Assembly (NCBI GenBank): GCA_963703315.1
Contig: OY969811.1
Coordinates: forward strand, 4,384,001 to 4,448,000
Direction of reading: 5' to 3'
From: an uncultured cyanobacterium
GTDB lineage: Bacteria; Cyanobacteriota; Cyanobacteriia; Pseudanabaenales; Pseudanabaenaceae
DNA length: 64,000 bases
The translations under genes were made by a program, and so were the position numbers. The notes under the pieces were generated by a model, which saw only the letters and a program-made list of their open reading frames with translations, ran no database searches and was not told where the DNA came from. Every line of letters begins with the position of its first letter. Position 1 is the stretch's first letter. Positions 7,642 through 57,173 of this stretch are shown piece by piece.

Positions 7642-8286
7642 TTATTTACGAAAATCTTTACGTTTTTTGTGCCAATGCCGTAAAGCTAATGAACTAGCAA
7701 GTATCAATATACCTGCCGAAGCGTCAAACTCAAAGGGAACAGGAGTAATATCAAAAGTAGCGTTATTTAGGTTTCCTGTATTACCATTGAAGCTATCGTA
7801 AAAGCGTAATGTCCAAGTGGTATTGGGATTAGTGCCATCATTAAAATCGCTAAATGTATTTGCTACTAACGATGGTGATTCTACAAAAGCATTATCTTCT
7901 GGAGCAAAATTTCCTGTGTAGGGAGCGGAAGCACTGGAAATTAATGGTTGACTATCTATAAAAGTAGTACTAACTAAGTTGCTAGCTGATAATGAACTAA
8001 AGAGATTTAGGGTTCTACCGCTTGTATTATTTATTAAGTATCCTTCTAATTCGGCAAGGCTTGCATGAGTTAAATTGATGGTTAGGCTGTATGAATAGCT
8101 AGAAGATGTGGTGACTCCTGTAACGTTAAAAGTAAACTCTGTGGGAGTTGCTGTATTTGGAATAGACGAATCATTGAGTGCGCCAGTATTGCTGCTAAAT
8201 GAGAAAGCTTGTACTGACGGAGTAGATACAGTATAACTAATCGCAATAGTAGCTGTGGCTAATAGAAGTTTAGGTATTGTATGCAT
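7642..8286 (-). CDS. Secreted PFE-CTERM (PEP-CTERM-like) protein with a proprotein convertase P-domain-like fold
   Basis: Signal peptide (VQA|F); WTLRFYDSFNGNTGNL resembles a P-domain end; C-terminus is VPFEF + TM + basic tail. Confidence 0.7.
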   Translation of the reverse strand: MHTIPKLLLATATIAISYTVSTPSVQAFSFSSNTGALNDSSIPNTATPTEFTFNVTGVTTSSSYSYSLTINLTHASLAELEGYLINNTSGRTLNLFSSLSASNLVSTTFIDSQPLISSASAPYTGNFAPEDNAFVESPSLVANTFSDFNDGTNPNTTWTLRFYDSFNGNTGNLNNATFDITPVPFEFDASAGILILASSLALRHWHKKRKDFRK

Positions 8287-51625: not shown

Positions 51626-51702
51626 AGATCCCCCCCAGCCCCCCTTAAAAAGGGGGGAGAATTCTCTTCTTCCCCCTTTTTAAGGGGGATTGAGGGGGAT
51701 CT
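51626..51702. repeat. Cyanobacterial CCCCCCTT/AAGGGGGG palindromic repeat
   Basis: AGATCCCCCCCAGCCCCCCTTAAAAAGGGGGGAG...CCCCCTTTTTAAGGGGGATTGAGGGGGATCT. Confidence 0.75.
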
Positions 51703-52588: not shown

Positions 52589-53470
52589 ATGCATAAAGCT
52601 ACGGGGCTACAATATGGCGATTGGGATTTTCAGGGATGGCGATCGCATTATGGATTTTGTCCAGCGCAAAATATTGATCGTAATAAGCCACCGATCCTGT
52701 TAATTCATGGTTTTGGCGCAGCGATCGATCATTGGCGCGGTAACATACCTGCCTTAGCCCAAGACCATGATGTATATGCGATCGATTTACTAGGATTTGG
52801 CGGATCAGAGAAACCAGCGATCGCCTATTCGATCTATTTATGGGTAGAACAGGTGTTGAGTTTTTGGCAAAAATTTATTGGTGTGCCAATGGTGATCGTT
52901 GGTAACTCCATCGGAGCTTTAGTAGCCGCGATCGCCGCCAGTCATCATCCCCAAATTGCGGCGGGAGTCGCTACCCTGAGCTTGCCAGATATTGAGGCTT
53001 TTCAGAACTTAGTTCCCAAATGGCTTCAGCCTTTGGAACGCGCTGTCAAGGCGATCGTTAACGTCTTGCTAGTCAGACCTCTATTCTATCTCTTCCGTCA
53101 ACCTTGGATGATTCGCTTCGTTCTCAAAGCGATCGTTTATAGCGATCATCGCCGTGTGGATGATGAGCTAGTGGAAATCATTGCCAAACCTGCCCGCGAT
53201 CGCCAAGCCGCCTCAGCCTTTGTCAGTCTCAATCGCAGTCTCAATCAACCAAATTATTCACCTAGCCTAACGCAGGCTCTTTCAAATCTACAAGTTCCAT
53301 TATTGATTTTATGGGGTAGTCGCGATCGCTTAATCCCTCCATCAGAAGGTAAGCGCTTAGTCCAATATGCTCCTGATGCCACGCTCATCTATTTGGAGGG
53401 ATTGGGACATTGCGCCCATGACGAAAATCCTGAGATTTTTAATCACGAAATTCTGAGGTGGCTAGCATAA
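52589..53470 (+). CDS. Alpha/beta fold hydrolase
   Basis: LIHGFGA, DLLGFGGS, GNSIG nucleophile elbow, GHCAHDE. Confidence 0.9.
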   Translation: MHKATGLQYGDWDFQGWRSHYGFCPAQNIDRNKPPILLIHGFGAAIDHWRGNIPALAQDHDVYAIDLLGFGGSEKPAIAYSIYLWVEQVLSFWQKFIGVPMVIVGNSIGALVAAIAASHHPQIAAGVATLSLPDIEAFQNLVPKWLQPLERAVKAIVNVLLVRPLFYLFRQPWMIRFVLKAIVYSDHRRVDDELVEIIAKPARDRQAASAFVSLNRSLNQPNYSPSLTQALSNLQVPLLILWGSRDRLIPPSEGKRLVQYAPDATLIYLEGLGHCAHDENPEIFNHEILRWLA

Positions 53471-53719
53471 GCCCCAAGCATTAATGTAGCGTTTGAGCAT
53501 TTGCGCCACTATTTCTCAACTTCCCACTAAAATCTCCATCTGCAAATGCTCAACCCTTTTAGCTTTGAATTAATCTCACTAGCTAAACCAAACCTTTAGT
53601 TTTTCTTGAGCTTTTTTTATATTCTGGCTTAATATGAGCAGTAACTATTGAATAACTAATTGTTTTTGATAATATTTCAATTCCAAATTATATACGATCA
53701 AAACAAATACTTTTATCGC

Positions 53720-53760
53720 TGTCAAACCTAGACTTATTATTGATTGGGAAGTAGGCGATA
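53720..53760. repeat. Cassette-flanking direct repeat R1
   Basis: TGTCAAACCTAGACTTATTATTGATTGGGAAGTAGGCGATA. Confidence 0.85.
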
Positions 53761-53765
53761 TGTAT

Positions 53766-54137
53766 TTATAGCTTTGTCTGATGACGCGCTATCTCTAAAA
53801 GCACTTGATCTAGACTTGGTTCAGCGCTGTCTATAATATTCTCTCCATCATGCTTGTGATGTGGAAAAGTAGAAACATTTGCATGGTGAGGAGCGTTATC
53901 ATAGCGAAAAATCATTACCTGATCTTCATTCATGTAGTGATATCGATATTTTATTTTATTCAAGATTTCAACATTCTTGACTTCTACAAAATCTAAGCGA
54001 TGATTATTCTCAAAAATAATTGAACCGCTAATATATCCCTGCAAAATATTGTAGATTTTCTTAGTCAACGAGACAAAACGCACATTAGGAAACTCTTTAA
54101 TAATCCCTTCAAGCTGTGCAAAATACTCTTCAATCAT
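53766..54137 (-). CDS. DUF6516/TumE-family putative toxin
   Basis: Y.YHY......IFRYDNAPHH....TFPHHKH motif; ATGA overlap with the upstream partner. Confidence 0.8.
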   Translation of the reverse strand: MIEEYFAQLEGIIKEFPNVRFVSLTKKIYNILQGYISGSIIFENNHRLDFVEVKNVEILNKIKYRYHYMNEDQVMIFRYDNAPHHANVSTFPHHKHDGENIIDSAEPSLDQVLLEIARHQTKL

Positions 54138-54442
54138 CTTAGTTCGCTAAGCTGGGCTTGATTTTGACAAAGCATTTCATACAATCCCGCCCAAATCATA
54201 AAATCTGCTTCATCTTCTAAAAGCCCATCTGAGAAACTTTTGTAAAACTCAGCAGATGTCATATTATACTTTCTTTCAAAATCATCTAATTCCAGCCGTA
54301 GATTTAGAATTCCCTTTTGTAATTCAGAAACTTGGTAAGCAATAATATTTAGGGCAAATACTTCTGTATTTTTAACTTGGCTAAGGATTTTTTTTAATCT
54401 TCGTTCTGTTTGTGGCTGCACAGATAGCTGAAAATCCAACAT
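54134..54442 (-). CDS. Putative antitoxin partner of the DUF6516 toxin
   Basis: FERKYNMTSAEFY..F..G.L.D..DF..W motif; coupled upstream of the toxin. Confidence 0.7.
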   Translation of the reverse strand: MLDFQLSVQPQTERRLKKILSQVKNTEVFALNIIAYQVSELQKGILNLRLELDDFERKYNMTSAEFYKSFSDGLLEDEADFMIWAGLYEMLCQNQAQLSELR

Positions 54443-54501
54443 ATTAATCTCTGGCTCCCTATTTGTTAATAAATACTACTGTGAGTATAACAAATAAACT
54501 C

Positions 54502-54545
54502 TGTCAAACCTAGTTCTAGTATTACTTGAGATGTAGGCGATCGCC
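54502..54545. repeat. Cassette-flanking direct repeat R2
   Basis: TGTCAAACCTAGTTCTAGTATTACTTGAGATGTAGGCGATCGCC. Confidence 0.85.
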
Positions 54546-54621
54546 TGAAAAATGAAGTGACTAGCGATCGCCATGATTTAAAAAAGCTAAAATAACAGCA
54601 CCCCTCTATATTTACTTGACC

Positions 54622-54930
54622 ATGAACGAACTGAAAATCTTTACTGAATACCCCGATCGCGCGATAGAGATCCTCCAAAAAACAATCCGTGCTGAAATCC
54701 TGCGAATGGAACAGGGAAAAAAACAGATAGAACAAAAATTAAAAACATTCGAGCAGAAATATCAAATCTCCTCTCGTGAATTTGTCATCTCTTGGACAGC
54801 CGATAATCTAGAAGGCAAAGACTTAGAATATGTCGAATGGTTTGGTGAATATCGCTGTTTAGAAAATATTACTCAAGACTTACAGATTCTCCTAAGCTTA
54901 CAAAATATTAGTCAAAATGTCAGTATTTAG
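54622..54930 (+). CDS. Putative antitoxin partner of the second DUF6516 toxin
   Basis: FEQKYQISSREF...DLEYVEWFGE, the same family motif as 54134-54442. Confidence 0.7.
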   Translation: MNELKIFTEYPDRAIEILQKTIRAEILRMEQGKKQIEQKLKTFEQKYQISSREFVISWTADNLEGKDLEYVEWFGEYRCLENITQDLQILLSLQNISQNVSI

Positions 54931-55303
54931 CTATTTTCAGGACTTAGTTCTTGCAGTTTCTCGGCTAGAAGATTACGGCTTAGCCAAAACAATTACATCC
55001 AATAGCGAATCTCGTCCATCAGGTGAACTCTTTATTAATATCAAAGCAGAGCTAATTGATAACTCTATACTTTTTATTCGAGAATACATTTCCGATCAAC
55101 AGGAACAGATCGAACATTTCAGCTATGCCTACCAATATCAAGCGGCAGATGAAAGCCTAATTTTTCGTTACGATAATGCTGCTCACAAACCACCGCTATC
55201 GGACAAAGAACATAAACACCTACAGAATGGAGAAATCATCGTTTATCCACTCCCAAGTATCGAATTGATAATTGACGAGATTTTAGCTTGGTTAACAACC
55301 TGA
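54917..55303 (+). CDS. DUF6516/TumE-family putative toxin (second, divergent copy)
   Basis: YAYQYQ.....LIFRYDNAAHKP.....HKH motif; overlaps the partner's stop. Confidence 0.8.
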   Translation: MSVFSYFQDLVLAVSRLEDYGLAKTITSNSESRPSGELFINIKAELIDNSILFIREYISDQQEQIEHFSYAYQYQAADESLIFRYDNAAHKPPLSDKEHKHLQNGEIIVYPLPSIELIIDEILAWLTT

Positions 55304-55318
55304 TCAATTAGACTTAGA

Positions 55319-55362
55319 TGTCAAACCTAGAGCTAGTATTGATTGGAAAGTGAGCGATCGCC
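55319..55362. repeat. Cassette-flanking direct repeat R3
   Basis: TGTCAAACCTAGAGCTAGTATTGATTGGAAAGTGAGCGATCGCC. Confidence 0.85.
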
Positions 55363-55490
55363 TAATGCACGAAAAAGTTGGCGAAGGTAAAGTCCTGAAT
55401 TTATCAGGTACAGAAAATAACACGAAGCGCTGAATAATTTATTTCATGTTATCTTCATGGTGGTATCTCCCCGATAGAGCTAAACTCGAC

Positions 55491-57173
55491 ATGAAATATC
55501 TCATAGACGCGATCGCCAATATCTCTCGCCAACTAGTTCCTCGATCTGCGGCTTTAATGATTTTACTGAGTGCGATTGGTGGATGGGCGATCGTCAAGCC
55601 TAGTGAAGCCGCCGAAACTGTCAATTTTCGCTTTAATATTTTTGAAGTCTCAGTTTCCGTTGATGACTTGGAAACCTTTTCTAAAACTGGGGAATTGCGC
55701 GGCGCATTGGATATGGCATCACGGTATATTTCTGCGTCAGATATGGCAACCTTTCGACGGATCTTGACAGAGAGAGCCAATGTTCCCATATCTTTATTGT
55801 CTAGATTTCTCTACACATCTCAAGGAGAAAGATCCCTAGATATTTTAGGAGACTTTATCAAAACAGGACCGACTCTATCAGGTAATCGAGCTATTCGCGC
55901 CGCCGCAGTTTTGGCGACCGCCGATAAGCAGAATGGTTTATCTTTACTCAACTTTTTACGGAAATTCCCCACATCCGATATCTACTTTGATATTCAAGCA
56001 GGACTGCAAACTGTTGGTGAATTAAGTGATTTACTTCAGAATACTCAAAGAACTGTCCAATTGGTCAATGACGAGGCTACAAAACAAGCCACTGCTACAC
56101 CAGCGCCTACACCAATTGAGTTAGCTGATTTACGGGAGAAAGGGAGCTTGCAATGGGATCGCTATAGCCTCAAAGCCCCTGCCCTAAATAATAAATATGA
56201 GATTCCGTTCTATTTATTTATTCCCAAATTTGCTAATACAAATGTAACTAATATTCCTACGATCGTGATCTATCCTGGACTCATCTCGAATCGTGAACCA
56301 TTACTCTATCTTGCCGAGCATCTAGCTTCCTACGGTTTTGCCGTGATCCTAACGGTTTCGCCTAATAGTAGTGAGGAACAATTAGATAAATTGATTATTG
56401 GGGCGGCGACTGAAATTGCACCACCAGAGAGCTTTGTTGAGCGTCCGCAAGATATCACGGCGGTTCTCAACTATCTAGAAAAGTCGCCACAAGTCGATAA
56501 TCCTGCTAGCTCTAAGATTAATTGGAAGAACGTGGGTATAGTTGGTCATTCCTTTGGCGGTTATGCGGCGCTAGCGTTGGTAAGTGATGCCCAGATTCAG
56601 TTTGCAGATTTACAGGAAGCTTGTCAGGGGAAATATAAATGGAATGCTTCGCTATTACTGCAATGTGTAGCTCTAGGATTGCCCAATCAGACCTATAAGT
56701 TAGGAGATCCGCGTATTACCGCCGCGATCGCTGTTAATCCTGTGACTAGTCATGTATTAGGCAAGTCGATGTTGAGTAAAATTACTGCACCGATCGCCCT
56801 AGTAGCAAGTTCCGATGATACGTTTGCCCCTGCGGTCGCTGAGCAAATTGTACCGTTTACATGGTTGACTAGCGCTAATCGCTATTTGGTCTTACTAAAT
56901 CGCGCAGGACATACGGCAGTGACCGCAATTACATCCAGCGATCGCCTGAGTCCTGAAGTCAGCAGTGTGTTAGCAGGACCAAATCCGATCGCCTCACAGG
57001 ACTACCTCAAATTACTAAGTGTGGCTTTTTTCAAAACCCATCTAGTGCAGGAATCTAGCTATGCGAACTATCTGACTCCCGCCTATTTTGCGAACATCTC
57101 AACGCAATCAGCGCAAGTGAGTTTGTTGCGATCGCTCAGCATTGAACAAATCAATGTAGCGATCGGTAATTGA
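55491..57173 (+). CDS. DUF1400 + alpha/beta hydrolase, secreted
   Basis: AAETVNFRF...SVSVDDLETFSKTG DUF1400 start; HLASYGF, RPQDI, GHSFGG. Confidence 0.85.
   Translation: MKYLIDAIANISRQLVPRSAALMILLSAIGGWAIVKPSEAAETVNFRFNIFEVSVSVDDLETFSKTGELRGALDMASRYISASDMATFRRILTERANVPISLLSRFLYTSQGERSLDILGDFIKTGPTLSGNRAIRAAAVLATADKQNGLSLLNFLRKFPTSDIYFDIQAGLQTVGELSDLLQNTQRTVQLVNDEATKQATATPAPTPIELADLREKGSLQWDRYSLKAPALNNKYEIPFYLFIPKFANTNVTNIPTIVIYPGLISNREPLLYLAEHLASYGFAVILTVSPNSSEEQLDKLIIGAATEIAPPESFVERPQDITAVLNYLEKSPQVDNPASSKINWKNVGIVGHSFGGYAALALVSDAQIQFADLQEACQGKYKWNASLLLQCVALGLPNQTYKLGDPRITAAIAVNPVTSHVLGKSMLSKITAPIALVASSDDTFAPAVAEQIVPFTWLTSANRYLVLLNRAGHTAVTAITSSDRLSPEVSSVLAGPNPIASQDYLKLLSVAFFKTHLVQESSYANYLTPAYFANISTQSAQVSLLRSLSIEQINVAIGN

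Follow-up and report, generated by a model that had tools for sequence, protein, structure and literature searches.

Several described systems come close to the arrangement analysed here. Integrons have attI and attC sites, the latter with conserved R and L boxes, and an IntI integrase, and CRISPR arrays consist of near-identical repeats with spacers of 25-45 bases. Insertion with long target duplication was reportedly first described in H. pylori. In this process cargo lies between direct repeats of more than 30 bp and of variable length that copy host sequence and sometimes overlap a gene 3' end; the hosts are mostly naturally competent, a Microcystis case is included, and a mobile-element gene is missing from the cases in the accessible part of that report (Furuta, Abe, Kobayashi 2010, PMC2853133), whose supplements list further cases, including Microcystis, that may bear on the novelty of the present locus. 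The pdif sites of Acinetobacter are 28 bp long (11-6-11) and inversely oriented, with highly conserved inner palindromes (PMC6449649). In Synechococcus PCC 7002, a homologous copy of the octamer HIP1, the function of which has been an open question for three decades (PMC5861425, PMC13756078), raises integration up to 7-fold, and more than 100-fold if methylated (bioRxiv 2024.09.10.611283). In a proteobacterial pair, the toxin TumE was shown to inhibit translation and its partner to neutralise it (Durairaj et al. 2023, PMC10584680). Here, we describe an array of two TumE-type toxin-antitoxin pairs between three direct repeats (R1, R2 and R3) in a window of 64,000 nucleotides from an uncultured cyanobacterium of the Pseudanabaenaceae (contig OY969811.1 of assembly GCA_963703315.1, positions 4,384,001 to 4,448,000). 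The genome holding the window (G000; 4,565,174 bases) was compared with other genomes (G001, G006 and so forth). The repeats are traced to the 3' end of the host gene pcrA, and we consider it probable that such gene-end copies and the cassette modules between them move by host recombination at or beside HIP1, with no dedicated integrase.

Origin of R1-R3 from the 3' end of pcrA

The three repeats align without gaps from 53720, 54502 and 55319, spaced 782 and 817 bp apart as the initial annotation had it, and pairwise share 32-34 of 43 bases (74-79%). The exact 12-base head of the repeat occurs four times genome-wide (4.57 Mb), three of these in the array. A matrix of R1-R3 found one other strong site in G000, located within a helicase gene (4038492-4040867) 398 kb from the array and identified as pcrA (TIGR01073 above cut-off; C-terminal Tudor domain). 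R3 is 77% identical to the 3' end of pcrA, i.e. to the codons of the Tudor domain, over 92 bases (55320-55411; E 1.5e-14), and the repeat length of about 42 bp given initially thus fails for R3. As a safeguard against circularity, an independent matrix was built from the pcrA coding sequence of 41 genomes alone; in a genome scan it scored pcrA at 54.8, followed by R3, R2 and R1 (Table 1), with the next site at 18.1. HIP1 stands at the corresponding place (Gly-Asp-Arg codons) in 38 of the 41 pcrA genes; the octamer is intact in R2 and R3, as first noted, but broken in R1 at its joint with pair 1. The best match to any pcrA allele covers 34, 35 and 37 of 43 bases for the three repeats, versus 32-34 among the repeats themselves. 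As they are at least as close to some pcrA allele as to each other, they have decayed from pcrA rather than being held to a common site. At the level of sequence, these comparisons show R1-R3 to be decayed copies of the HIP1-containing 3' end of pcrA. Donor alleles closer to R3 likely exist, since a metagenome contig that aligned on R3 from 55323 (85% threshold) has an unaligned flank reading as upstream pcrA codons.

The surroundings of pcrA in other genomes agree with such an origin. In G006 and G064, pcrA is followed by Uma2, pair 1, a pcrA copy and, last, the gene that comes directly after pcrA in G034, G016 and G025; this is the layout expected of a gene end displaced by an insert; the latter three genomes lack the insert and belong to different species, so they are not alleles of one species. 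Across 48 genomes, a profile of the repeat matched pcrA once per genome, and 14 genomes held 24 copies besides (>31 bits; next match 24.8). Of the 21 copies outside G000, 17 adjoin a toxin or antitoxin gene, two adjoin unannotated small genes and two adjoin neither. Gene content after pcrA varies widely across 41 genomes, and in G000 the stretch downstream of it (4031400-4038479) holds a cluster of Uma2, a nucleotidyltransferase pair, DUF2281, PemK and other small genes.

Each interval of the array contains one antitoxin and one DUF6516/TumE-type toxin and nothing else, with no mobile-element gene. Pfam and NCBIfam agree with the annotation on this point: both toxins match PF20126 above cut-off (E 1.8e-23 and 8.2e-18), both pairs match TumA and TumE in NCBIfam with scores under the equivalog cut-offs, and both match PDC-M44A/B in PADLOC. 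The pairs point away from each other and are highly diverged (34% identity between toxins, 29% between antitoxins), likewise as annotated. R2 separates the divergent antitoxin starts and keeps its place upstream of pair 1 in relatives, and one promoter-like match (9/12) begins inside it (54526), as would suit repeats that act as antitoxin operators or promoters. We regard this explanation as very improbable: R1 and R3 are found at the 3' ends of the toxin genes, pcrA codons are the source of the sequence, pair 2 in relatives usually has no R2 upstream, and the 13 promoter-like matches compare with 7.9 +/- 3.1 in shuffles, so that the promoter and terminator scan is not clearly above shuffles. 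An Rfam scan of 53000-56000 gave no family at gathering score and one chance match (E 0.93).

Movement of the modules and joints at HIP1

The unit R1-pair 1-R2 was found at other loci in G001, G021 and G067, and pair 2 with an R3-like end at yet other loci in several genomes. The sequence to the right of R2 varies among genomes; at the joints of pcrA copies, the arm to the left of HIP1 goes with the upstream module and the right side differs. Beside a McrBC-like operon, G001 carries R1-pair 1-R2-MazEF and G006 carries one repeat, 120 other bases and MazEF; homology between the two ends at the HIP1 position of R1 and resumes just past the degenerate HIP1 of R2. The upstream edge of this operon (L182:3835-6196) bears an R1-type copy in G001, G006, G024, G033 and G067, and the small-gene modules that come next differ. 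An element of about 120 bases that contains HIP1 (L217:3280-3401; also L013, L218, L220 and L221) often follows the pcrA copy at joints and has three matches in G000.

Variation was also observed at the window locus itself. In run X2, one 882-base metagenome contig (depth 5, about 98% identical) matches 54198-54544 with 5 differences, continues with 40 other bases and then matches 55338-55829 with 12 differences. Its left break coincides with the last base of the R2 HIP1 and its right break lies inside R3, just past the dyad discussed below. The content of the contig points to a very close relative that lacks pair 2 at this locus, which is the kind of strain variation that the initial annotation had anticipated. 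Together with the occurrence of both units elsewhere, this supports the proposal, made there from one genome, that the pairs behave as movable cassettes, as judged from alignments. The empty hydrolase-hydrolase site that had also been anticipated was not found, since the two flanking hydrolase genes are not adjacent in any relative examined (far apart in G002, G006, G062 and G064; divergent and 5 kb apart in G021), and neither these relatives nor X2 gave a single-repeat allele at the locus.

The coordinates of the array and its flanks are collected in Table 1. The dispersed element on the left flank has copies in several relatives and, in G006, stands next to pair 1 in the stretch downstream of pcrA. 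Further left, a long hairpin (51626-51702; 36-base arms, 89% complementary) separates genes labelled fabH-like and cysH-like from their translations.

Table 1. Features of the array and its flanks, in positions of the window.
Feature	Position	Strand	Remarks
Alpha/beta hydrolase, left flank host gene	52589-53470	+	different neighbours in relatives
Dispersed intergenic element, about 80 bases	53481-53566		31 BLAST matches in genome
R1	53720-53762	+	decayed copy of pcrA 3' coding sequence; pcrA-frame reading VKPRLIIDWEVGD; pcrA-only matrix 36.5; nhmmer E 4.7e-4
TumE-type toxin 1, 123 amino acids	53766-54137	-	PF20126, NCBIfam
TumA-type antitoxin 1, 102 amino acids	54134-54442	-	NCBIfam
R2	54502-54546	+	decayed pcrA 3' copy; intact HIP1 (54537-54544) at its end; matrix 37.9; E 1.2e-4
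Spacer with second HIP1 (54564-54571)	54545-54621	+	recurs at G000 4031422-4031497, 7 kb downstream of pcrA
TumA-type antitoxin 2, 102 amino acids from ATG	54622-54930	+	NCBIfam
TumE-type toxin 2, 128 amino acids	54917-55303	+	PF20126, NCBIfam
R3	55319-55411	+	longest pcrA copy; HIP1 55354-55361; matrix 46.5; E 1.3e-16
DUF1400 hydrolase, right flank host gene	55446-57173	+	different neighbours in relatives

Gene-end copies elsewhere and a second repeat family

The whole of G000 was scanned, with our own open reading frame (ORF) calls, for intergenic stretches matching a long gene within 15 kb. This yielded 39 local copies, 18 of them same-strand 3' ends downstream of the parent gene, nine same-strand 5' ends upstream and 12 others. 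The parents include dnaE, sbcC, a SufBD gene, a gene for a PEP-utilising enzyme and gnd, and many intervals between copy and parent hold toxin-antitoxin or defence genes. For the 26 gene-end copies more than 100 bases from their parent, HIP1 is present in 16 parent segments versus 3.7 expected (all rows), or in 11 of 18 versus 2.7 expected in a first count with eight paralogue-like rows dropped. The other arrays in G000 are built from unrelated gene ends, and HIP1 is their sole common feature. Downstream of the dnaE ORF, its 3' end is present in two copies around a DUF2442/DUF4160 pair (G000 1211704-1212492), and one of these copies starts and ends at HIP1-type sites. In a tile test, three distant genomes gave no same-strand downstream 3' copy in 0.8 Mb, where about two were expected, and two congeners gave one in 0.4 Mb; the rate in G000 is 2.9 per Mb.

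A second repeat family allowed the joints to be followed across many loci. At 2806005-2808913 of G000, two toxin-antitoxin pairs stand behind a gene of 456 amino acids, and each pair terminates in a copy of the HIP1-containing end of that gene; this stretch is matched in 46 of 48 genomes of the genus, often in runs spaced 650-800 bp. Twenty loci chosen among the multi-copy matches were combined with two in G000 (2806005-2808913 and 4285699-4286172), giving 22 loci from 19 genomes. Their 95 repeats enclose 71 intervals below 3 kb, which are cassettes of 24 types (median 666 bp) that recur in differing order and number, one to seven per locus. Within such an array (G000 2807200-2808913, or one of seven cassettes as in G017) the repeats resemble each other far more than R1-R3 do. 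The cargo comprises 94 non-redundant ORFs, and 32 of the 43 scanned match families that we take to be toxin-antitoxin-associated, a label assumed for the DUF and Xis families. At 15 of the 22 loci, the parent gene's own end, in frame, serves as the first repeat; at the other seven the parent is absent from the fetched DNA (one at a contig edge), just as the window array lacks pcrA. The parent encodes a DUF1802 protein, one allele of which has a weak match to an Mrr-like nuclease. The C-terminus of the parent was found in 90 of 301 genomes of the class (G000 included); those of the 90 that lie outside the genus have at most two matches each, and mostly a single one. A same-strand DUF1802 gene-end copy 1.4 kb downstream in another family (G102:C50:68006-69535) is a lead for spread beyond the genus. 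The arrays are headed by an operon (L174:4262-8300) of three genes, encoding 212 amino acids, a P-loop ATPase of about 640 amino acids and the DUF1802 protein of about 450; the operon has no PADLOC match and is possibly an undescribed defence system, and its upstream 212-amino-acid gene has no match in Pfam, NCBIfam or PADLOC and no named match in the Atlas, and thus gives no ground for a recombinase role. As second-family repeats lie just downstream of pcrA in G070 (3845474-3846438) and G033 (2925030-2926596), the two families share a hot spot there.

The second family retains an intact HIP1 in 85 of 92 repeats. The 38 bases left of the octamer follow the upstream module (identity 0.803 versus a baseline of 0.738) and not the downstream one (0.736), and linkage to the downstream module shows at bases +19 to +45 (0.769 versus 0.484), which maps the exchange at or just right of HIP1. 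A single derived arm is common to nine of 31 types of upstream module, six of which have an outer HIP-like site. These data also bear on whether the repeats are passive debris, that is, scars of rare insertions with long target duplication trimmed by microhomology deletions, with HIP1 merely the commonest short repeat and no continuing traffic of cassettes. Such a history would suit the window, where R1-R3 are equally distant from each other and from pcrA, and the genus, where most relatives have 0-3 pcrA copies and G000 alone has three in a row; HIP1 is very abundant, and it is reported to promote excision about as frequently in E. coli as in Synechococcus (Robinson 1997). It leaves unexplained why the second family keeps HIP1 intact, why the same cassettes stand in differing order and number across species and why a strain about 98% identical differs at the window locus, and we judge it unlikely, though deserving of some weight.

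The initial annotation had read the repeat as a recombinase-type site with a 22 bp dyad as its core. The dyad (CTAG-nn-CTAG, with a 2-base centre) is missing from R1, intact in 6 of 14 aligned copies and complete in none of 41 pcrA alleles; it may arise from Pro-Arg-Pro-Ser codons. With joints at HIP1 rather than at the dyad, we rejected the latter as a recombinase site, and the reading of the repeat as a recombinase-type site is not supported either, the repeat being pcrA coding sequence and other arrays using unrelated gene ends. Matches to the tyrosine recombinase family PF00589 in G000 lie at 1.754-1.756 Mb and 4.368 Mb, the nearest 70 kb from the array; that at 1754120-1755589 is a recombinase of about 510 amino acids, and many genomes of the genus have matches in open frames of comparable length. 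No resolvase-family gene was found in G000. Among 100 ORFs of 170-620 amino acids within 7 kb of 20 second-family arrays, none was a recombinase at E 1e-12, and two transposases were present; one array in G009, outside those 20, lies about 5 kb from a recombinase of about 510 amino acids. A dedicated site-specific recombinase acting in trans, for instance the tyrosine recombinase of that length, with the repeats or HIP1 as its site and pcrA as the chromosomal attachment site, would account for modules that move as units and for R1-R3 all aligning from the same base, and a link between HIP1 and site-specific recombination of plasmids has been reported (Akiyama 1998, cited in PMC4390886). The unrelated parent genes with HIP1 alone in common, the second-family repeat edges, which are cassette-specific and not fixed, the poorly conserved dyad and the location of the recombinase genes make this improbable in our view.

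Proposed mechanism and comparison with known systems

On the evidence of alignments, the analysis establishes the host-gene origin of the repeats, modules beside different neighbours, joints at HIP1, unrelated gene-end families with shuffled order and the lack of a linked integrase. In the mechanism we favour, a small gene module would first insert at the pcrA gene end with long target duplication. Arm-ended modules, carried by natural transformation or as small circles, would then be gained or lost at the parent gene or any of its copies through host recombination that is focused on HIP1, the exchange falling at or just beside the octamer and being aided by 35-90 bases of shared flank. The enzymes would be general host ones rather than a dedicated integrase. 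Whole blocks could land at other HIP1 sites, and the window array may have been assembled in this way at its distance from pcrA. An exchange focused on HIP1 fits the boost of integration by HIP1 in the laboratory (bioRxiv 2024.09.10.611283).

Several points weigh against this mechanism. HIP1 occurs at 8,189 sites in G000, one per 557 bp, so joints at HIP1 could be plain microhomology. Because R1-R3 are only 74-79% alike, they are probably poor recombination substrates now; the window repeats are degenerate and may be largely spent. The absence of the full dyad from the pcrA alleles implies that its origin lies in a donor outside the sample or at a later time. The model does not explain why copies begin 30-60 bases upstream of HIP1, and the tyrosine recombinase of about 510 amino acids in G000 and many relatives is a possible factor in trans. 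Internal ends of the G000 gene-end copies fall on CGATCG in 12 of 36 cases versus 1.8 (global null) or 4.8 (local null) expected, an excess that favours the mechanism but is weaker evidence than the count of HIP1 in parent segments, as alignment ends are drawn to exact words. In the second family, bases +1 to +18 follow neither neighbouring module, and the linkage pairs are not independent and the genomes are kin, so that permutation values overstate. The X2 evidence is a single contig of depth 5 that displays a replacement instead of a clean excision, gives no direction and has its right break inside R3, not at HIP1. No circle, clean repeat-to-repeat deletion or ongoing event was seen in the four runs aligned, which consist of contigs and are blind to rare circles; one of them, X1, may be the source of the window DNA.

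A bolder version, which we hold only tentatively, is that the genus runs an integrase-free counterpart of the integron: any HIP1-bearing gene end, duplicated once, would become a landing pad at which methylation-dependent exchange at HIP1 adds, removes and reorders toxin-antitoxin and defence cassettes with an arm of 35-90 bases copied from that end, new cargo being recruited by HIP1-to-HIP1 joining onto an existing arm, in keeping with the derived arm common to nine types of upstream module. If true, HIP1 gains a concrete natural function, and if HIP1-centred arms of 45-90 bases suffice for integration, they would make a simple engineering tool for cyanobacteria. In any case, the arrays offer dozens of natural joints and short ready-made substrates for asking whether HIP1 directs crossovers, and those of the second family are a better experimental system than the window array. 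They also indicate that gene ends can gather toxin-antitoxin and defence genes, in changing order, where no enzyme of a mobile element is adjacent, and they advise caution in scans, where att-like repeats may be host coding sequence.

A search of the open literature by title or abstract start found no description of such arrays. The window pairs share family matches and the order of antitoxin upstream of toxin with the TumE-TumA superfamily (PMC10584680); they score under the NCBIfam equivalog cut-offs, and toxicity here is a prediction. The initial annotation did not recognise the repeat as attC, dif or CRISPR, and rightly so. In place of short spacers between near-identical repeats, gene-bearing intervals of about 800 bp separate repeats that share 32-34 of 43 bases. 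Modules of pdif (XerC/XerD) type are likewise about 0.8 kb and can hold one toxin-antitoxin pair, with an enzyme that would act in trans (PMC6449649); here, the repeats are direct and 43-92 bp long instead of inversely oriented 28-bp sites, and the palindrome is not conserved. As in integrons, small cassettes, often toxin-antitoxin pairs, stand in tandem with a repeat at the end of each, and their order and number vary (in the second family, and in the X2 contig without pair 2), and in the second family the first site is at the head of the array. Unlike in integrons, no integrase gene is adjacent, with the nearest PF00589 match 70 kb away, no Rfam family was matched, and the repeat is host protein-coding sequence that differs from array to array. 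HIP1 within a homologous stretch favours integration in Synechococcus PCC 7002 (bioRxiv 2024.09.10.611283; Elhai 2015, PMC4390886) as it may do here; that work used laboratory plasmids, whereas these are natural chromosomal arrays with HIP1-centred joints. With insertion with long target duplication, the locus shares direct repeats of more than 30 bp that copy a host target (43-92 bases of pcrA; 26 local copies in G000) and an insert below 20 kb with no mobile-element gene. It differs in its cargo, TumE-TumA instead of the restriction-modification genes that served as search criterion in PMC2853133, in forming arrays of up to seven shuffled cassettes with a HIP1-enriched copied stretch, where the accessible part of that report gives single insertions and no shared motif, and in arrays away from the parent gene (seven of 22 second-family loci and the window array). 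Among known systems, insertion with long target duplication nevertheless fits best, if extended to toxin-antitoxin cargo, shuffled arrays and a HIP1 centre.

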